Source of the DNA: an uncultured Candidatus Saccharibacteria bacterium | Lineage (GTDB): Bacteria; Patescibacteriota; Minisyncoccia; Phycocordibacterales; UBA9973 | Direction: 5' to 3' | Assembly (NCBI GenBank): GCA_964591445.1 | Contig: CAZQAW010000001.1 | Location: 14,625 to 78,624, forward strand | Length of the DNA: 64,000 nucleotides | In this document: positions 1 through 8,486 of the stretch, in pieces | Position numbering within the stretch: position 1 is the first letter of the stretch | Layout of the letters: each line of letters starts with the position of its first letter | Notes under the pieces: model-generated | Database searches by the model: none | Told to the model about the DNA's origin: nothing | The model's input: only the letters and a program-made list of their open reading frames with translations | Position numbers and translations under genes: made by a program

Positions 1-1605
1 GAAAAAGATTGCCCATATGTTTGAGATTGGTATTGGTTGTCGTCTTTGCCAGCTGTCACTTGGAGTATGCCATTTACTTTGTCTCCTTTTGCAAAATTAC
101 CTTTTGGATTGTTGTCTACTCCGACATACAAAGTAAGACTATCATCTATAAATGAAATGTTATCAGAAAATGCGCCGGCGACGTTGCCATAGGTTGTGAC
201 TCCATCTTCCGGACAGCCAGTGTAGTCAACAGTATACGAAACAGTCTGTGTTCCACCCGGTACTATATGAGCGATGTCGCCAGAAACCGTATCCCATGTA
301 ATCGTATTTCCAGAAAGCAAACCTCCACCAAGCGGCGTAATGCGCGATGCCGGAGTACCAACACCACAAACGTTCTGCAAGTTTGTCATGATGTTGGTGA
401 GATTGTCGGTAATCGTCGGATTGAAAATAGTTTCGCGGCCAGTTCCGACAAAGCTGTTTGAAAGTGTGACAGTGTACGTAACGATCGGCGTATATCCGGC
501 AGCATTTACGACATAATGTTTATCGCCAATAAGCGCTGTTCCGGAAACATTCTTTTCAATAGTTGGGTCTGGTGTCGAAGTGATCTGCGTTATGTATTGC
601 TGCACGCCGGCTGTAAATGGATCGAGATCTGACACAGTCGCATTGCCGCGAAGCGAATCTATATGTGCGGAGAAATTAAATTGCATTCCAGATTGCCAAC
701 CGTTGGTTGTTTGGAGCTGCATGTTCAAAGTTCCAGACTGACCGGCCGCGACATTGCCCAAAGACCAATACACGCTTCCCGCCGGAACAGTGATGCCGTT
801 GACTGCAATCGAGCTTGCGGTGTATTGCCCGCCGTTTGACGCAGAGAGAAATGTGAGCGCCGGATTTTGGTTGTACAAATTGTTGTAGTTGTTGATGCCG
901 CTTGCCATGGTTGGAACCGGGATCCACACAACAGTGTTCACATCGTCGACATATGAGATGGAGTAGTTCACATCAACGCCCAAGTTCGCACCAGCAGGAA
1001 CTGATGCCGGAGTTGTCATTGTGATCAAATACCCTGGAAGCGGATTCCATGTCACACGCAAACTGTTGATTGTCGGCGGAGTAACGCCGTTTGTCATGTC
1101 GACGCGGACTTTAATACATGGATACGTCGTTGCAGAAAGCGAACCAATGTTGTACATGCCGCCCGCAAGTGTGAGATTTTGAAATCCAGAAATCGGAGTG
1201 AGATCGCATTCGTACAAACTTACCACGACGTCTGTCGCACCAGAATAGTTTGCATCAAGTTCGACAGTATTCCATTTCGTAAAAGAGTTTGGGCGAATAT
1301 CTGCCGTTGTAAAATAACCAGTCGTTTTGCCGGCCGCGACTTTTGCAACGCCGACGATCGTGTCGATCTCGGTATCTTGGCGGCCAGGATCGCCTTCGGC
1401 AACCACACCTTGCTGGTCATTGTTGAAGTCGACAAGGAAATATCCGCTGTTGTCGTTTTGCACATATGAACCAAGCGCGGTCAACGCTCCTGTAATTTGA
1501 AAAAAGACGAACGCGATCAATACGCCGTTTTGAAGAATTTGTACACCTTGCCTTCCTGTGTTCGTATGAAAAAAGTTTCGAATACGTGAAAATAACGCGT
1601 TCATA
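1..1605 (-). CDS. Large secreted/cell-surface repeat protein, N-terminal part; the CDS runs off the window start.
   Basis: Manual translation of the minus strand from ATG at 1605-1603 gives MNALFSRIRNFFHTNTGRQGVQILQNGVLIAFVFFQITGALTALG..., a signal-peptide/TM-like N-terminus. An uninterrupted reading frame follows to position 1, rich in T/N/G/S/V and beta-strand-like. The ORF track omits it because no stop codon lies in the window. GC content is at the core-gene level. Confidence 0.55.
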
Positions 1606-1761
1606 GATAAAGCCAAACCGCTTAAATGCTAAGCTCCGCACAAAGAAATTCTTAGCTTTATTATACCCCGTTTCCCCGCCTACCTGAAAGGAAATGTGTG
1701 GATAAGAAAAGCCCCCTATTCGAAATAAATCGAGGGGGCTTAGAGTATCATAGACACTATT

Positions 1762-2193
1762 TTACAGGCTAAAAATTATGGTTTCGGACTTAAATTTATT
1801 AGGAAATAAAATATGTTTTCGAAACATCGTTCTAGAAAGAACTTTTTCATCATAACTAGCCACTTCTACTAAAAATCCATTATCGAATTTTTTTTCTTTT
1901 ACAAAAATAAATTTTTGATTTTTAAATAAACCCTTACTTTTTATTTCTTCAATTGTAAAGATATAACCAATGTCTTTAAGAAGAAACATTCCGATTAAAC
2001 CTAAGACAAAAGAGCTGGTGAATAGGCCGGCTGCATACAAAACCTGCTGCTCGTTTATTATAAATTTATTTGATGGATAAATAAAATAATACAAAGTAAG
2101 TAACAGTGCTGCGCAACAAAAACAAAAAAGTTGTCCCATAAGAAAATTAGCAATTTTTCTCTTTTTTTCGAATTTCTGATATTGAGTTGTCAT
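1762..2193 (-). CDS. Hypothetical small membrane protein in an AT-rich segment.
   Basis: 143 aa ORF with two or three hydrophobic segments (LFCFCCAALLLTLYYFIY, FTSSFVLGLIGMFLL). No recognisable motif. Confidence 0.45.
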   Translation of the reverse strand: MTTQYQKFEKKRKIANFLMGQLFCFCCAALLLTLYYFIYPSNKFIINEQQVLYAAGLFTSSFVLGLIGMFLLKDIGYIFTIEEIKSKGLFKNQKFIFVKEKKFDNGFLVEVASYDEKVLSRTMFRKHILFPNKFKSETIIFSL

Positions 2194-2293
2194 AATTAAT
2201 TGTTTTTTGAGTTTAGAAAATTATTTACAGTTATAATATTAAAAAATATTGACAATGTCAACTATGGGTGCTTTTATATAAAATTTACTTCTG

Positions 2294-2365
2294 TGCCCTC
2301 GGTACGAATCGAACGTACATCTATTCCTTAGGACGGAACTGTTCTATCCATTGAACTACGAGGGC
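2294..2365 (-). tRNA. tRNA-Arg (anticodon CCT).
   Basis: The reverse complement reads GCCCTCGTAGTTCAATGGATAGAAC-A-GTTCC-GTCCTAA-GGAAT-AGATG-GTACGTTCGATTCGTAC-CGAGGGC-A. This gives a cloverleaf with a 7/7 acceptor stem, D-arm, T-arm with TTCGATT loop, and a 7-nt anticodon loop gtCCTaa. Confidence 0.8.
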
Positions 2366-2397
2366 GTTTGGTAACTTTAGCACGCTTGGTACGAAGC

Positions 2398-2478
2398 CAA
2401 AAGCCCCAGAAAAAGATTTTGAAAATGGTCTGGCGATTTTACCCGAGGACCTTTTCGAAACTTTTTCTGGGGCTTTTG
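2398..2478. repeat. Long inverted repeat: 18-bp perfect arms caaaagccccagaaaaag / ctttttctggggcttttg separated by about 45 nt.
   Basis: The arms at 2398-2415 and 2461-2478 are exact reverse complements. The repeat lies between tRNA-Arg and the 3' end of the glutaredoxin-like gene. It could be a terminator or a small structured RNA. Confidence 0.45.
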
Positions 2479-2485
2479 TGTAAGT

Positions 2486-2737
2486 CTATATCTTCACGTC
2501 TAAAAGTTCTGCTATTTTTGGTTTGTTGAATCCAACAATCAAATTGTTTCCGATTGTAATTACCGGCACGCCCATCTGTCCGCTGATGTCGATCATCTCT
2601 TCGCGCTTTGCTTGGTCGGCGGCAACGTTAAATTCTTCATACGCAATATTGTGTTCTTGAAAAAATGCTTTTGCCATGCGGCAGTACGTGCACACCGGCG
2701 TCGTATAAATAGCTACCTTTTTTGCGTCATCTTGCAT
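2486..2737 (-). CDS. Glutaredoxin-like / NrdH-like small redox protein.
   Basis: 83 aa with an N-terminal CTYC (CxxC) active site directly after a beta-strand (VAIYTTPVCTYCRMAK). It also has GVPVITIGNNLIVGF, the typical glutaredoxin cis-Pro region. Confidence 0.7.
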   Translation of the reverse strand: MQDDAKKVAIYTTPVCTYCRMAKAFFQEHNIAYEEFNVAADQAKREEMIDISGQMGVPVITIGNNLIVGFNKPKIAELLDVKI

Positions 2738-2787: not shown

Positions 2788-3180
2788 TTATTCTGCTTCC
2801 CTCTTACCAAAAAGCTTTTTGAAGAAGTTTGTCAAACTGCTCTTGCCTTTTTCTTCGCCTGTTTTTGCTTCTGGAGTTTCGTCGACAACCACCACAACAC
2901 CTTCGCCTTTTTTCACTACGCCAAATTTCTCGCGGATTACCTGCTCGGTGCCGCGGTCAGTCTCGAGCTCTTTCATGTCGGCTTCCAAGTGCGCTTGCTG
3001 GTCGAGCAGTTTTGCGTTTTCAACTTGCGCACGAACTTTGTTCTCTTTTGTTTCGCTATTTTTACGAATCAAGCCCAAAATATTGTACACAAAAAACAAA
3101 AGAAGAAGCGCCAATATGAGGAGCGCCGGCGTCGTATGGATAAGTCTTCGTTTTGGTTGTGGCTTTTGGAATTCTCGCAT
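2788..3180 (-). CDS. Septum formation initiator (FtsB/DivIC-like) protein.
   Basis: 130 aa with a basic N-terminus, a single TM (ALLILALLLLFFVYNILGL), then a coiled-coil segment (NAKLLDQQAHLEADMKELE) and REKFG. This is the typical FtsB/DivIC architecture. Confidence 0.5.
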   Translation of the reverse strand: MREFQKPQPKRRLIHTTPALLILALLLLFFVYNILGLIRKNSETKENKVRAQVENAKLLDQQAHLEADMKELETDRGTEQVIREKFGVVKKGEGVVVVVDETPEAKTGEEKGKSSLTNFFKKLFGKREAE

Positions 3181-3337
3181 AATCGTGGTACTATGGGTGC
3201 ACTACCAATAGTATACAACATATATGTTTCTCAACCCTAAACACAAAAACAAAGTCAAAATCGTCTGGGCGGTCATCTCCGTCCTCATCATGATTTCTAT
3301 GGTACTTCTCTATATGCCGGGGCTGTTTCAGTAATAC

Positions 3338-3751
3338 CTAGCGACCAAATAATATCACACGTACTAATCCAAAAAGTTGGTCATTATCAAGATCTTTGGT
3401 TTTTTCTACAGACACAGCAAGAACATCAAGAGAGATGTGTTTTGTGCTTATGACAAGCCCGTATATTTCACAAAAAATTTGAAGCCATAGAACTGCCATT
3501 CGCTTATTCCCATCCACAAACGGGTGATCTTTTATAATGAGACAGAAAAATGCTGCCGCTTGTTTTTCTAAAGTAGGAAATCGAGAAAAGCCAAAATAGT
3601 TTGCGTATACTGTTTTAACTATCACGTCTATTTTATCGGCGTGCTCATCTTGCAACTCAAAAAATACTTCCCCTCTTTGCAGAAGAAGATTATAAGCTTC
3701 GCACAATATTTTTGAGGCTGGCTGGAGTGATTGTTTTTTCTCCTCGGTCAT
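3338..3751 (-). CDS. doc: Doc (death-on-curing) / Fic-family toxin.
   Basis: Contains HPFVDGNKRMA, matching the Doc motif HxFx(D/N)(A/G)NKR. The protein is 137 aa and helix-rich, a size typical of Doc. Confidence 0.75.
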   Translation of the reverse strand: MTEEKKQSLQPASKILCEAYNLLLQRGEVFFELQDEHADKIDVIVKTVYANYFGFSRFPTLEKQAAAFFCLIIKDHPFVDGNKRMAVLWLQIFCEIYGLVISTKHISLDVLAVSVEKTKDLDNDQLFGLVRVILFGR

Positions 3752-3869
3752 ATTTTCTTAAAGATTCAATTTCTTTTTCTCTTGTTTTATAGGCAGCAGA
3801 AATAACATCCGGGGAGACATTCGGAAGTTTGTCATTGTTTTTATTGAAAAAAGCAAGGATTTTCTTCAT
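3690..3869 (-). CDS. Candidate small antitoxin-like ORF upstream of and overlapping doc.
   Basis: Manual translation gives MKKILAFFNKNNDKLPNVSPDVISAAYKTREKEIESLRKYDRGEKTITPASLKNIVRSL (59 aa). It is on the same strand as doc, immediately 5' of it, and overlaps the annotated doc start by about 60 nt. It was missed by the 60-aa ORF cut-off. Confidence 0.35.
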   Translation of the reverse strand: MKKILAFFNKNNDKLPNVSPDVISAAYKTREKEIESLRKYDRGEKTITPASLKNIVRSL

Positions 3870-3915
3870 ATATACTCATTATACCAGTTATATTACAACC
3901 AAACAACCTAGACAT

Positions 3916-5733
3916 TTAATCCCCGCTCCGCATCATCTTCAAGAAAACTTCTTGTGGAATGTTTACGTTGCCGCGGCCGCGCTCTTTCATGCGCTCTTTT
4001 CCTTTTTTCTGCTTTTCAAGCAATTTCTTTTTTCGAGAAATATCTCCACCTCCCACAACTTTAGAGCCGTGCATCAACACATCTTTTCGAAATGCAGAAA
4101 GTGTTCGAGAAGAAAGGATTCTTCCGGAAGCAAACCCTTGGATTTTTGTAGAGAATTGTTGTCGTGGCAAAATGCTGTGAAGTTTTTCGACAGCTTGTTC
4201 AGCTTCATCGTAAGCTTTTCGTTTTGAAACAACGCGCGTAAACGCAGCCACGATTTCATCTGCAACCAAAATATCAAGACGAGTTACGTCGGCTTTTCTT
4301 AGTTCGCCAATGTTATACGAAATAGACGCAAAGCCGGACGTCGCGCTTTTCAATTCATCAAAAAAGTTGCGCATCATTTCGCGTAACGGCATACGGATTT
4401 CCATTTCGCTTCGGTCGTCTCCAAAGTTTTCAGTCTTACCAACTTCCGCTTCATGATCAAAAAGCATTTGCATGACATTGCCCAAATACGCAACCGGCGT
4501 GATAAGCGTAATGTTTACCCAAGGTTCTTCGATGCCGATTATTTCTCCATCGTTTGGAAACAAGTGCGGAGAATAAATCGTTTCGCGTTTTCCATTTTTT
4601 AAAGTCACGTAGTACGTGATCGACGGACTTGTTACCACAAGCTCCAAATCAAATTCACGTTTCAATCGTTCGGTAATAATTTCCAAATGAAGCATTCCCA
4701 GAAATCCGCATCGATATCCGCGACCAAGCGCGCCCGAAGTTTCTTCTTCAAATGAAAAAGCAGAATCAGAAAGTTTAAGTCGTCCAAGCGCCATGCGAAG
4801 CTGGTTGAAGTCATCTTGCGATTCCGGATAGACAGACGCCCACACCACCGGTTGCGGATTCAAATATCCAGGAAACGCCGGCAATGGATTTTTAAGAAGC
4901 GTGATAGTATCTCCCACAGAAGCGATACCCGGCTTTTTAATTCCAGTTACGATGTAACCAATACTTCCCGCAGTCAATTTTTCTTTCGCGTCTTCTTCCG
5001 GAGAAAATGTTCCGACTTCAAGCGAAATAAATTTTTCATCTGCGATTTTAAAAAGCATATTCTCGCCTTTTCGTGCCGCGCCGTCAAGCACGCGCACGTA
5101 CACAATCACACCTTTGTGGTCAGAATATTTAAAATCAAACACGAGCGCTCGCAAATCATTTCCACCAGAAAATTCCATAGTTGGTGGTGGCACGCGACGG
5201 ATCACTTCGTGTAAAAGTTCTTCCACGCCTTGCCCCGTTTTTCCAGACACTTCCAAGATATCATCCAAATCGCAATCAAGTAGTTTTGCAACTTCAAACT
5301 TTACTTCATCGATTCGCGCCAAAGGCGAATCAACTTTTGAAAGAACTGGGATAATTTTCAAACCAGATTCGCGTGCCATGCTGAGCGTCGTCAAAGTTTG
5401 CGCTTGCACACCTTGCGTACAGTCGACAAGCAAAATAGAACCTTCGACAGCTTTCAATGCTCGAGAAACTTCGTACGAAAAGTCGATATGGCCCGGAGTA
5501 TCGATCAAGTTGAGCTCAAAAGTTTCCCCTTCGTGCAGAAATTCCATTCGCACTGGCTGCATTTTGATAGTGATTCCCCGCTCGCGTTCAAGCTCCATGG
5601 AGTCAAGCACCTGGTCCTTCATCTTTCGCTTTTCGATTGTGTGTGTAACTTCAAGCATTCGGTCAGCCAAAGTAGACTTCCCGTGGTCAATGTGGGCAAT
5701 AATGCTAAAGTTGCGGATATGTCGTAGTTCCAT
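3916..5733 (-). CDS. lepA: Elongation factor 4 (LepA).
   Basis: IRNFSIIAHIDHGKSTLADR (G1), DTPGHIDF (G3), and the LepA-specific C-terminal domain (...GDISRKKKLLEKQKKGKERMK...). The likely start is the Met of MELRHIRNF. Confidence 0.95.
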   Translation of the reverse strand: MELRHIRNFSIIAHIDHGKSTLADRMLEVTHTIEKRKMKDQVLDSMELERERGITIKMQPVRMEFLHEGETFELNLIDTPGHIDFSYEVSRALKAVEGSILLVDCTQGVQAQTLTTLSMARESGLKIIPVLSKVDSPLARIDEVKFEVAKLLDCDLDDILEVSGKTGQGVEELLHEVIRRVPPPTMEFSGGNDLRALVFDFKYSDHKGVIVYVRVLDGAARKGENMLFKIADEKFISLEVGTFSPEEDAKEKLTAGSIGYIVTGIKKPGIASVGDTITLLKNPLPAFPGYLNPQPVVWASVYPESQDDFNQLRMALGRLKLSDSAFSFEEETSGALGRGYRCGFLGMLHLEIITERLKREFDLELVVTSPSITYYVTLKNGKRETIYSPHLFPNDGEIIGIEEPWVNITLITPVAYLGNVMQMLFDHEAEVGKTENFGDDRSEMEIRMPLREMMRNFFDELKSATSGFASISYNIGELRKADVTRLDILVADEIVAAFTRVVSKRKAYDEAEQAVEKLHSILPRQQFSTKIQGFASGRILSSRTLSAFRKDVLMHGSKVVGGGDISRKKKLLEKQKKGKERMKERGRGNVNIPQEVFLKMMRSGD

Positions 5734-5833
5734 AAAGTACTTACACCATAGCACAAATCTGGCTTTATTTCATGCTTTGGTTGACAAGTATAGATAAGTC
5801 ATATACAATTTTTAAAAACTACAACTTAATACT

Positions 5834-6760
5834 ATGAAGATACTGTGCATCCTATTGCTTCTCACTCTGGGTGCAGAAGTATTCTCACAAGAGAGAAAGT
5901 ACATTTACAAAACATCTACAATCACTATTCCTTTAGGGCTTTATACTCGGCTTGAAATTTCTGCAATTACTAAAAAACCATCCATTTATTCTCCCCGATC
6001 TGACAGCAAAGAAACAACTCGAAAAAGTACTCTGACATACACTAAGACGCAAAAGCCAATTTTGTTAGACAGCCTCTCTCTATCTTCGGATTCCTTGTCT
6101 CTTGATTCTATCAATGTGCAAGATTCATTAGGACGTTATCCTAACAAACAAGAAGCAGACTCTGCACTTTTTCATTGGAAATCTGACTTACAGAAAATTG
6201 CTGAATGTATCGAAAGCAAAGTAGATTCTTTGTTAATTGCCGAAACTACGAAAGTTGATATACGAAGAACTATAGAGACAGTCGTACGCCAAGAATCACG
6301 AAATATTCTGTACGTTGGCAAAGACAGCGCGGTATGGCATTTCATGCAACGTTTTGAGAAATCTATCAAGGAAACATACTCAATAACTACTACAACCTCT
6401 CGGACTATTCAAATCATAACGCATGAGTGTGTCGAAATAGAAACAAAGAATAATCAAGACAGCACCCAAGAGATAATGCTCGCTCTGAAAGATAGTACTA
6501 TAGAAGATCCTATTCCAGAGAAAGAGAAGAAAGGTATATTTCGTAAAAAGGGTGTCAAAATTGCATTAGTAGTTGTCGCAGCACCAGTTGCTATCCCGGT
6601 GTTTATAGTGGGGTACCCTATCTATCTTCTTATCGATAAACTTTCAAACCGTTCCAGCAACAGATCATTCACCATTCAGTTCAAAATCAAGAAAGTTGGT
6701 AAAGTTAAAAGAAGTAAGGGCAAAAAACGTTATAAAAACCAGTGTTTTGACAAATTTTAA
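5834..6760 (+). CDS. Hypothetical secreted/membrane-anchored protein.
   Basis: N-terminal signal peptide MKILCILLLLTLGAEVFSQ, a serine-rich repeat (DSLSLSSDSLSLDS), a C-terminal TM (IALVVVAAPVAIPVFIVGYPIYLLI) and a basic tail. AT-rich. Confidence 0.5.
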   Translation: MKILCILLLLTLGAEVFSQERKYIYKTSTITIPLGLYTRLEISAITKKPSIYSPRSDSKETTRKSTLTYTKTQKPILLDSLSLSSDSLSLDSINVQDSLGRYPNKQEADSALFHWKSDLQKIAECIESKVDSLLIAETTKVDIRRTIETVVRQESRNILYVGKDSAVWHFMQRFEKSIKETYSITTTTSRTIQIITHECVEIETKNNQDSTQEIMLALKDSTIEDPIPEKEKKGIFRKKGVKIALVVVAAPVAIPVFIVGYPIYLLIDKLSNRSSNRSFTIQFKIKKVGKVKRSKGKKRYKNQCFDKF

Positions 6761-6791
6761 AAAGGAGTATGATATACTCCTTTTTTTGTTT

Positions 6792-8486
6792 TTAGAGCTC
6801 CTTCTGCGACGGCACAATCACTTTTGCTTTCCAGAATTTGTGCTTGAATGCTTCTTGGACTTCTTTATATTCTTTGTTCTTCAAGAGCCACAGCACGAAG
6901 ATGCCGGCGAAGATTCCCAAAATGCCGGAGATAAATCCTTGCCCTAAAATTCCCCAAAATGTATTGATATCGAAAATATTGTCAAAGACGTCGAGGAATT
7001 TGTACGCGACAAAGCCCATAAAAAATGCTCCGGCAAAGACTTCGAAAAAGGTGCGGGTCAAACAATGTGAAAATTCTTTCAAAAAGTCGCGCTTGAAAAG
7101 GAACCACAAACCAAGGAAGTTGAGTATCGTACCGACGGAATATCCGAGCGGAAGCATGAGAAGCTCGGTGCCGGGCACGTCTTGCACACGGAAAAGCGAC
7201 TCCATAAAGTATCGGAAGAATTCGTGCGTGCGGAACAAATGAAGGAATAAAACTGCGAACCCGATTTCAAGTGCGGTGAAAACGAGGTTGACGACAAGCG
7301 GACGGCGCGTCTTGCCGGCAGCGTAATATCCGCGAACGAATAACACTATCAAACTTTGAGCCAACACCGAAAGTGCAAAGAGCGCAAGCGCCGCCGCGGT
7401 GAGCTTGGTATCATTCCACGAGAAAGCTCCGGAGCCCAAGATCACACGCACGATCTGCGCGCGAAGAACGATGAAAAGGAAAATAACCGGCAATGACCAG
7501 AAAATAATTTGTCTTGAAGCATCGATAATCTGTTTTTTAAAATTGTCTATTTGCCCGGAAGAAAAGGCGTGTGCGAGCATTGGAAACGCCGCGACCGAAT
7601 ACGAAACTCCGATGATGGATATCGGCACCGCTTGCAAATTGTAAGAGAAATTGAAAAGCGAAATGGAACCTTCGCGGATAGTCGAAGCAATGGACACGAT
7701 CGCCGCAATAGCAAAGCTGTTGAGCGAAAGTGCAAGCGTACGCGGAAGTGAAAGCATGAATACTTTTTTAATATGAGAGAAATCAATACGCTTGGTAAAT
7801 GTCGGAGTAAAATGATTGCGAATCAACACTGGAATTTGTATGCACATATGAAGGAGTGCGCCGACTGCAACTCCATATGCCAAGCCAAAAATCCCAAACT
7901 GCGGATACAAAAATACTATTCCAAAAATAATGCCGAGGTTGTAACACACCGGCGCAAGAGCATAGACGAAATATCTTTTGTGAATTTGTGTAATCGTACC
8001 GAATAGATTTGAAAAACCAAGGAGTATCGGAGACAAAAGCATGATGCGGCTCATGCTTATAAGAGACGCTTTATCTGCTGCCGCAAAACCTGGCGCAACG
8101 TACTTTACCAAATGCGGCATAAGAATAAATACAACGAGCGCAACGAAAGTTATGAAGAAGAAAAATGAAGTGAAGATTTCGTTAAAGAAATGTCGCGCAT
8201 GCCCACCGCCTTGTCCGCTGTCGTCTTTGTTCAACTTGTCGATAAAAAATGGAATGAGCACTGTCACCGCAACAAGCGACGCAACAGAATTGAAAATCAA
8301 ATCTGGAATTCGAAACGCGGCATAGTACACATCAAGCGATGCAGACGGCCCGACGAAGTGCGCCAAAGCTCTGTCGCGGAAAAGCCCGAGAACTTGCGAA
8401 AGTAAAGCAAACCCGCCTAGAAGAATGGCGGCCTCGTTGATGCCGCCAAACTCCTTATTGAAGATGGAAAGAAGACGCTTTACCAT
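6792..8486 (-). CDS. murJ: Lipid II flippase MurJ (MviN).
   Basis: The N-terminal region LLGGFALLSQVLGLFRDRALAHFVGPSASLDVYYAAFRIPD is the conserved MurJ signature. There are 14 predicted TM segments across 564 aa. Confidence 0.9.
   Translation of the reverse strand: MVKRLLSIFNKEFGGINEAAILLGGFALLSQVLGLFRDRALAHFVGPSASLDVYYAAFRIPDLIFNSVASLVAVTVLIPFFIDKLNKDDSGQGGGHARHFFNEIFTSFFFFITFVALVVFILMPHLVKYVAPGFAAADKASLISMSRIMLLSPILLGFSNLFGTITQIHKRYFVYALAPVCYNLGIIFGIVFLYPQFGIFGLAYGVAVGALLHMCIQIPVLIRNHFTPTFTKRIDFSHIKKVFMLSLPRTLALSLNSFAIAAIVSIASTIREGSISLFNFSYNLQAVPISIIGVSYSVAAFPMLAHAFSSGQIDNFKKQIIDASRQIIFWSLPVIFLFIVLRAQIVRVILGSGAFSWNDTKLTAAALALFALSVLAQSLIVLFVRGYYAAGKTRRPLVVNLVFTALEIGFAVLFLHLFRTHEFFRYFMESLFRVQDVPGTELLMLPLGYSVGTILNFLGLWFLFKRDFLKEFSHCLTRTFFEVFAGAFFMGFVAYKFLDVFDNIFDINTFWGILGQGFISGILGIFAGIFVLWLLKNKEYKEVQEAFKHKFWKAKVIVPSQKEL

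Follow-up and report, generated by a model that had tools for sequence, protein, structure and literature searches.

The general architecture of toxin-antitoxin (TA) modules is one in which the antitoxin gene comes first, the two genes overlap, and a disordered region of the antitoxin folds on the toxin (PMC4803016). Here we describe a gene pair in a stretch of DNA of 64,000 nucleotides (nt) from an uncultured Candidatus Saccharibacteria bacterium (contig CAZQAW010000001.1, positions 14,625 to 78,624; hereafter the window) that encodes a 137-amino-acid (aa) Doc-family protein and, from an overlapping frame upstream, a protein of 59 aa. The closest described systems are the Phd-Doc modules. P1 Phd-Doc (3K33, 3DD7, 3KH2), the chromosomally encoded Enterococcus faecalis protein (9VZC; PMC13034048) and the Doc of Streptococcus phage Javan181 have the same toxin fold as the pair in the window and the same HxFx(D/N)(A/G)NKR motif, and the gene order of Phd-Doc modules is also the same, with the small gene first, overlapping and co-directional. 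The mechanism expected to be common to both is the folding of an inhibitor peptide onto Doc and the phosphorylation by Doc of Thr382 of EF-Tu (PMC4803016). There are, however, clear differences. The partner in the window is unrelated to Phd/YefM, is 59 aa long rather than 73-85 aa, and lacks both a DNA-binding and a dimerisation domain, which makes conditional cooperativity in the style of Phd unlikely; and whereas the phage modules have a 4-nt ATGA overlap, the genes here overlap out of frame by 62 nt or, in some relatives, 38 nt.

FicA and VbhA are helical antitoxins of ~55-62 aa that have no DNA-binding domain and are encoded just upstream of a Fic-fold toxin. The pairs FicT-FicA, VbhT-VbhA and Bep1-BiaA (5JFZ, 3SHG, 5EU0) resemble the one described here in having a similar small helical partner upstream, and their Fic domains are the next-best structural matches to the model of our Doc protein. 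Nevertheless, the motif that defines their partners, [ST]xxxE[GN], is missing from the conserved core of the family of the 59-aa protein, and the structural matches reach template modelling (TM) scores of just 0.38-0.53. Class I Fic toxins carry GNGRxxR and are AMP-transferases, not kinases, whereas the toxin here is instead Doc-type, with NKR in its motif. A third comparison is with Mycobacterium tuberculosis, whose TA transcripts are predominantly leaderless (PMC3898074, PMC8485053). As in the leaderless type II TA operons of that species, a -10 box here would make the mRNA begin with the antitoxin start codon or no more than 1-2 nt from it, although the transcription start is read from the DNA only and the phylum and the toxin and antitoxin families are all different.

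We propose, with a probability of about 0.65, that the pair is a compact, horizontally acquired type II-like TA cassette whose 59-aa protein is a minimal antitoxin acting as an inhibitor only. A first-pass annotation, made from the letters of the window, had suggested a probable type II TA pair. That part of the suggestion which concerns a Doc toxin with an overlapping, co-directional small gene upstream, probably its antitoxin, stands; the partner, on the other hand, turned out to belong neither to Phd/YefM nor to any other described family. What the locus probably encodes is a toxin of a known kind, Doc, together with a member of a new candidate antitoxin family, and the long overlap of their genes is conserved and unusual.

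A divergent Doc with an intact catalytic motif

The 137-aa protein matches the Pfam family Fic (PF02661) with E=5.9e-10 and 40.3 bits, well above the cutoff of 24, and it matches PHROG 577, 'Doc-like toxin', with E=3e-14. When a profile of 35 Doc relatives was compared with the Doc of Streptococcus phage Javan181, which adjoins an annotated Phd, hhalign returned a probability of 98% (E=7e-14), and in the PDB sequence set the sole match to the same profile was the E. faecalis death-on-curing family protein 9VZC (E=2e-5; PMC13034048). The AlphaFold2 (AF2) model consists of seven helices and has a mean predicted local distance difference test score (pLDDT) of 93 and a predicted TM score (pTM) of 0.87, and it conforms to the single-domain, all-helical Doc fold of ~125 aa. 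The top five Foldseek matches to this model in the PDB are all chains of P1 Doc (3K33, 3DD7, 3KH2), the best of them being 3K33_A, with TM scores of 0.67/0.73 over 122 aligned columns and a probability of 1.00. Larger Fic proteins score far lower (TM 0.38-0.53 for class I Fic domains).

In the Doc motif, HxFx(D/N)(A/G)NKR, Lys replaces the second Gly of the Fic motif, and it is this form that is found in the window, as H76-P-F-V-D80-G81-N82-K83-R84. Residues H76, D80, G81, N82, K83 and R84 are invariant among the 35 aligned relatives, and a substitution of the catalytic His or Asp, which the first-pass annotation had named as an argument against a Doc, is therefore not seen. Its assignment of the 137-aa ORF (open reading frame) to the Doc family, made from the letters HPFVDGNKR, holds in view of the Pfam score above threshold and of the AF2 model, which best matches P1 Doc. 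The protein is a divergent but genuine Doc.

The partner belongs to an undescribed protein family

The small ORF, for which a lack of homologues had been raised as a possible objection, has 24 close homologues of 54-72 aa, and a profile search of 1.84 billion proteins retrieved 84 representatives at the 50% identity level (E<=1e-3). These are 50-130 aa long, nearly all of them 50-70 aa; the match always lies at the C-terminal end, and none is fused to Doc. The N-terminus of the family is variable and basic, and all close homologues are identical over K32-K45. YDRGEK is the form taken by the core motif, Y-D-x-G-(E/K/N)-K, in 66 of 105 family members. In the AF2 model of the small protein (mean pLDDT 80), the basic N-terminus is disordered or of low confidence and is followed by a helix (residues 20-42), a loop (43-49) and a second helix (50-58).

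In that part of the core which does not overlap Doc, the entropy at the three codon positions is 1.02/0.81/1.52 across 31 loci, the third positions varying most, and the whole range of synonymous codons for Leu and Arg (six each) and for Ser is used to encode the invariant peptide. As the peptide is constant while the synonymous codons vary, selection acts on the translated protein and not on a signal in the RNA. We conclude that the small ORF is a real, selected gene of an undescribed family. This pattern bears on the alternative that the ORF is non-functional, being either a chance frame or a signal at the nucleotide level (a ribosome-binding site or RNA structure) for the expression of Doc. 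In keeping with that alternative, the ORF falls in no database family, several gene callers omit it (it is called on near-identical public contigs; P0054), and the Doc frame largely determines its last 12 codons, as described below. Yet a frame that is open in 35 of 35 loci, and at whose start codon a promoter is precisely positioned in 27 of 31, is hard to reconcile with a non-functional ORF, as are the full use of Leu, Arg and Ser codons for an invariant peptide and the variable third positions. The codon-phase pattern effectively refutes this explanation, which we regard as the least credible of those considered here.

With regard to affiliation, membership of Phd/YefM (PF02604) was rejected: the profile of the small-ORF family compares with two phage proteins encoded in the Phd position at an hhalign probability of 0.1%, and the searches of Pfam, NCBIfam and the PDB detailed below were blank. 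Membership of the FicA/VbhA type (alpha-inh) was also rejected, since only 7 of 105 members have the Fic inhibitory motif [S/T]xxxE[G/N], in each case in the variable N-terminus and not in the conserved core. The comparison with Phd/YefM and other antitoxin families, which the first-pass annotation had recommended, thus matched no described family, and a search of the literature on Doc and TA modules in the candidate phyla radiation (CPR) and on the peptide motif found nothing specific.

We also note a predicted 425-aa protein (P0110) whose N-terminal region is repetitive and resembles surface proteins and whose C-terminal end consists, in frame, of the last ~55 residues of a small-ORF homologue. 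This part is identical to the homologue at locus L012, and the protein could stem from recombination at a junction, from chimeric assembly or from a gene call extended too far beside the cassette.

A long overlap in which each frame is selected

The small ORF and Doc share 62 nt, with the Doc frame at +1 relative to that of the small ORF. The first-pass annotation had placed a 59-aa ORF upstream of Doc on the same strand with an overlap of about 60 nt, and all of its coordinates are correct. It had also proposed, on account of the size of the overlap, that the real doc start might be an internal alternative near 3690, and this proposal did not survive: there is no start codon there, and of the 22 relatives with the start type of the window, just 12 have a start-like codon at the place of TTG 3706, whereas all 22 keep ATG 3751.

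Two types of Doc start are found among the 31 loci. In 22 of them, including the window, Doc begins with MTEEKK at an ATG 75 codons before the motif, with an overlap of 62 nt; in the other nine, an ATG is available eight codons further downstream (MHPIS, codon -67), which gives an overlap of 38 nt. The ATG at codon -75, which is ATG 3751 in the window, is kept in all 22 loci that do not have an ATG at -67, and the Tyr codon of the small protein at that place is TAT in every one. Among the nine loci with ATG -67, the Tyr-codon position is TAC or CAC in five, and in three loci a stop codon intervenes between the two positions. Fisher's test gives p=7e-4 for this covariation of the start codons, a value that is indicative only, as the loci are related. 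In GC-rich relatives, moreover, the T that creates the downstream ATG is retained although T is otherwise disfavoured at third positions. With ATG 3751 retained throughout these 22 loci and the internal starts not, the long overlap is real and conserved, and Doc has its own selected start codon in ATG 3751.

Within the overlap the two frames divide the selection between them. Over 3728-3751, the small-ORF frame has entropies of 0.48/0.26/1.01 at positions 1/2/3 (31 loci), and since its third positions vary most, the nearly invariant Doc residues MTEEKKQS are a by-product of YDRGEKTI in the small protein. Over 3690-3727, it is the Doc frame whose third positions vary most (0.78/0.63/1.31; 31 loci), so that the last 12 residues of the small protein are largely shaped by HP.S..LCEAY of Doc. 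The aligned loci contain no conserved Shine-Dalgarno-like sequence before the Doc ATG, and the region preceding it is unusually unstructured.

These data also speak to the notion of a ~180-aa fusion, produced by a programmed +1 frameshift or by transcriptional slippage on an A6 run (GGAGAAAAAACAA, 3730-3735), in which a longer Fic protein would have the small-ORF product as its N-terminal domain. Such a fusion would be consistent with the shift of selection from the small-ORF frame to the Doc frame at ~3727/3728, right after the A-run, and with a Doc ATG that has no conserved Shine-Dalgarno sequence. However, the start codons covary, ATG -75 being present in 22 of 22 loci that lack ATG -67 and ATG -67 being kept in GC-rich relatives; the A-run is not conserved, the relatives having GAAAAGA, GAGAAAA or GGCAAGCGG in its place; no fused protein exists among 53 Doc or 105 small-ORF relatives; and Doc without any extension is a complete and confident Doc fold. 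We reject the fusion on the strength of the start-codon covariation and the non-conserved A-run and consider it highly improbable.

Strict pairing and sporadic distribution

For the pairing count, fetched loci were anchored on the HxxxDGNKR motif, and the distinct loci with enough upstream sequence (31) were taken. The small ORF is upstream of Doc in the same relative frame in all 31, its Y/H-D-x-G motif lies at an exactly constant distance from the Doc motif in all 31, and its stop mostly falls on the same nucleotide. Four further loci also carry the small ORF, which the gene callers had left unannotated in three of them (L054, L056 and L057), and among the 35 loci no Doc of this clade was seen without it. 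Conservation of the gene pair in relatives, which the first-pass annotation had put forward as a check, is therefore strict.

With the patterns used, 11 loci were found among 185,579 species genomes, a sporadic distribution. Ten of these 11 GTDB-representative records name a lineage of the Patescibacteria group (Paceibacterota, Nomura-, Taylor- or Vogelbacteria, or metagenome-assembled genomes labelled 'Saccharibacteria'), and the eleventh is labelled merely 'uncultured bacterium'. The most divergent pair (L003/L038), with a Doc that is 48% identical, is on a GC-rich contig of 244 kb. We observed around it genes for DUF932, a subtilase, a sigma-70 factor, FHA proteins and Ser/Thr kinases, a neighbourhood atypical of Patescibacteria, and the cassette may therefore occur outside this group too.

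Two loci, L017 (~6090-6110) and L041 (~1030-1060), have an intact small ORF but a frameshifted Doc, with a 1-nt indel in the T-run near codon 30; in L017 the run is T7, and the frame is restored if it is read as T6. The broken copies could reflect decay or inactivation of the toxin, phase variation at the homopolymer or assembly errors. A broken Doc beside an intact small ORF is what decaying TA loci would be expected to show.

The cassette is an accessory insertion

The cassette is about 580 bp in size (roughly 3338-3915) and has a GC content of 35.9%, as compared with 44-45.5% for lepA, divIC, murJ and leuS. Its neighbourhoods differ from genome to genome. It lies between S6-SSB-S18 and EF-P in L001 and between S16-KhpA-TrmD and, further on, rpoB in L005 and L055; it adjoins a restriction island (GmrSD/HNH/methylase) in L054, is found beside pentose-phosphate genes in L056, and is surrounded in L003 by the sigma-factor, DUF932 and FHA/kinase genes mentioned above. 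The backbone of L057 is that of the window, MurJ-LepA-(small transmembrane ORF, opposite strand)-DivIC-Grx, with a bidirectional terminator at the place of the window's cassette, i.e. an empty site, and with the pair ~1 kb further on. Given the low GC content, the differing neighbourhoods and the empty site in L057, it is clear that the cassette is an accessory insertion into a conserved MurJ-LepA-DivIC-Grx backbone. The first-pass annotation had found it noteworthy that a TA module should sit between cell-division and translation genes; the location is as described, but it is less remarkable for an inserted cassette that sits elsewhere in other genomes.

No convincing direct or inverted repeats that would mark a mobile element flank the cassette, and there is no second copy within the 64-kb window. 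Matches to plasmids were dismissed as chance FecA matches (E=0.9).

Expression signals

Upstream of the small ORF is an extended -10 element of the TGnTATAAT type (Table 1). Of 31 loci, 27 have a TAnnnT hexamer 5-8 nt ahead of the small-ORF start, most often at a distance of exactly 6 nt, and 16 of these also carry TGn; against a TAnnnT background of 7.5% inside Doc, this corresponds to a binomial p of ~1e-26, with the qualification that the loci are not independent. The -35-like hexamer agrees with TTGACA at 3 of 6 positions and was not picked up by a consensus scan. The promoter precedes the small ORF only, with none ahead of Doc, and the two genes are probably transcribed as a single bicistronic mRNA. 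The position of the -10 box across relatives places the predicted transcription start at or next to the start codon, and the pair would thus have a leaderless mRNA or one with a leader of 1-2 nt. No operator-like inverted repeat was found at the promoter.

A terminator-like hairpin starts 2 nt past the small-ORF stop, inside Doc. In the homologues its mean z is ~-1 and its register shifts; it ranks in the top 10% in 8 of 31 loci, and two other sites in Doc score equally. For this reason we did not adopt the idea that the small-ORF stop is followed by a conserved intrinsic terminator or attenuator (3688..3667), which the weak tendency in the relatives leaves unproven. The hairpin and its U-run could attenuate transcription of the toxin.

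Table 1. Features of the small ORF-Doc cassette, in window coordinates.
Feature	Position	Strand	Basis
Doc-family (Fic-fold) toxin gene, 137 aa, ATG 3751 to TAG 3338	3338..3751	-	Pfam, PHROG, hhalign, AF2, Foldseek, start-codon evidence
Catalytic Doc motif H76-P-F-V-D80-G-N-K83-R84	3500..3526	-	Read from sequence and alignment
Small ORF, 59 aa, candidate antitoxin, ATG 3869 to TAA 3690	3690..3869	-	Homologues, alignment, AF2
Conserved core A26-I47, AYKTREKEIESLRKYDRGEKTI	3729..3794	-	Alignment of close homologues
Out-of-frame gene overlap, 62 nt	3690..3751	-	Entropy by codon phase in 31 loci
Alternative TTG start (122-aa product, 17-nt overlap); probably not the real start	3704..3706	-	One Joint Genome Institute (JGI) gene call (P0001, L060)
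Weak -35-like hexamer TTGTTT, 17 nt upstream of the -10 box	3901..3906	-	Read from sequence
Extended -10 element TGGTATAAT (TGnTATAAT-type), ending 8 nt before the small-ORF ATG	3878..3886	-	Read from sequence
Terminator-like hairpin, 8 pairs (3 G-C), then UAUUUUUU	3658..3688	-	Sequence scan; significance uncertain

A possible mechanism and the case for a toxin-antitoxin cassette

The pair has several of the features of type II modules: the genes are adjacent and co-directional, the small gene is upstream, the frames overlap, the pairing is conserved and the distribution is patchy and accessory. A DNA-binding antitoxin with autoregulation is the feature that it lacks, there being neither domain matches nor an operator-like repeat. 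If the pair is a TA cassette, its working might be as follows. The extended -10 promoter in the 46-nt gap after lepA would give rise to a leaderless or nearly leaderless bicistronic mRNA. From the first cistron, the 59-aa protein would be made, and its helix-turn core (AY..KEIESLRKYDRGEK.I) would bind and neutralise Doc. The second cistron would yield the Doc-family kinase of Fic fold, whose HxFxDGNKR active site is intact, and Doc freed from its partner would, if it behaves like P1 Doc, phosphorylate EF-Tu and bring translation to a halt. Doc would initiate at its own ATG 3751, 62 nt within the first cistron and without a conserved Shine-Dalgarno sequence. As the Doc start is buried in the first cistron, ribosomes translating the small ORF would run over the Doc initiation site, and this traffic should keep the synthesis of toxin below that of antitoxin. 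Since the partner has no recognisable DNA-binding domain, it is probably not an autoregulator of the operon, unlike Phd, but a protein inhibitor only.

A number of observations weigh against this interpretation. The score of Doc against NCBIfam TIGR01550 (DOC_P1) is 34.4 bits, under the cutoff of 38.65, and its identity to P1 Doc in structural alignments is 17-18%. Kinase activity and EF-Tu as its target are presumed from the Doc family, and because of the DOC_P1 score below cutoff and the identity of only ~18%, EF-Tu must be regarded as an assumed target; a tuf (EF-Tu) gene was looked for and is not within the 64-kb window. With respect to the partner, there were zero matches of its family in Pfam and NCBIfam (both at E<=1), PADLOC and the PHROGs, and in the PDB there was neither a match by sequence nor a structural relative of the AF2 model. 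No DNA-binding domain (helix-turn-helix, ribbon-helix-helix, AbrB or Phd/YefM) was recognised in it; such a domain is a feature of most type II antitoxins, typical but not universal. Antitoxin cores are usually less conserved than that of the partner, whose binding to and neutralisation of Doc are putative. No copies of the small ORF or of this Doc clade were found on phages, plasmids or viral contigs. Finally, L005 and L055 share their insertion place (S16-KhpA-TrmD), as might be seen for a domesticated gene pair that is vertically inherited.

Some of these observations would be accommodated by the main rival explanation, an obligate two-subunit regulator, in which the small protein activates, targets or stabilises a Doc-type kinase that tunes translation, for example in dormancy, and Doc alone is not a restrained toxin. 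That K32-K45 of the partner are invariant while Doc is 55-70% identical supports such an arrangement, as do a partner with no DNA-binding domain and no similarity to antitoxins, the frequent location of the cassette among translation genes (lepA here; S6-SSB-S18/EF-P; S16-KhpA-TrmD) and a TrmD context common to two lineages. On the other hand, the distribution is sporadic, the patterns used having retrieved only 11 loci from 185,579 species genomes; the cassette is foreign in its GC content; the insertion site varies and is empty in a relative; there are frameshifted Doc copies with an intact small ORF; and one copy lies in a restriction/GmrSD island. These five features are typical of selfish or defence TA cassettes and therefore count against a core regulator. 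The sequence data do not separate 'inhibits' from 'activates'; a two-subunit regulator is, in our view, unlikely, and we favour the TA cassette.

More tentatively, and at somewhat less than even odds, we suggest that the ~60-aa proteins with the core AY..KEIESLRKYDxGEK.I (EIESLRKYDRGEK helix-turn) are a new class of minimal Doc inhibitors, lacking a DNA-binding domain and so far almost confined to Patescibacteria, for which the ratio of toxin to antitoxin is hard-wired in the mRNA rather than set by autoregulation. The wiring would consist in leaderless translation of the inhibitor and a toxin start 38-62 nt inside the inhibitor frame without a Shine-Dalgarno sequence, to which an attenuating hairpin just past the inhibitor stop may contribute.

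If the small protein neutralises Doc, it would represent an added antitoxin family, unrelated to Phd/YefM and without a DNA-binding domain, and its short conserved peptide of ~22 residues might then inhibit Doc kinases. Peptides derived from Phd are under exploration as Doc inhibitors (PMC9207808, PMC10728895). The locus also illustrates that the very small genomes of Patescibacteria keep gaining tiny, self-contained TA cassettes at varied sites in housekeeping clusters, and it is a clean natural case of two genes that overlap extensively out of frame, with selection dominated by one frame in one half of the overlap and by the other frame in the other half. The general picture of TA biology is unchanged by it.

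Neighbouring genes and other islets

Upstream of the pair, across the 46-nt gap, is lepA (3916..5754, minus strand), with murJ and leuS further upstream. In a mechanical list of ORFs, lepA is 612 aa long with a GTG start, whereas public calls on near-identical contigs give 605 aa, and the true start is probably the internal ATG (MELRHIRNF...). Downstream of Doc are a convergent 36-aa ORF (3224..3334, plus strand), a divIC/ftsB-like gene (2788..3180) and a glutaredoxin gene (2486..2737). The product of the 36-aa ORF, MFLNPKHKNKVKIVWAVISVLIMISMVLLYMPGLFQ, has a hydrophobic stretch that could form one transmembrane helix, and its stop is 3 nt from that of Doc. L057 has a positional homologue, MNIFRTKNKTWVKWVWRVIVVLVVLSMTALFAIK, between lepA and divIC; the ORF thus seems to be an unannotated but conserved micro-protein gene of the backbone, with transcription divergent from that of divIC.

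Between murJ and lepA is an islet of low GC content (5601..6800; 35-38%) with a 308-aa ORF (5834..6760, plus strand) whose product has an N-terminal hydrophobic segment. In L060/L062, which have an identical small ORF and the same order from lepA to glutaredoxin as the window, the same junction (180..851) is occupied instead by a 223-aa Y1 (IS200-like) transposase, identified by a weak Pfam match. The differing content suggests that the murJ-lepA junction is a strain-variable insertion hotspot. The lowest GC content of the first 12 kb of the window (27-33%) is at 1601..2400, where an ORF on the minus strand (1762..2193) encodes a 143-aa protein with hydrophobic stretches; it matches no Pfam family and is possibly another acquired islet.

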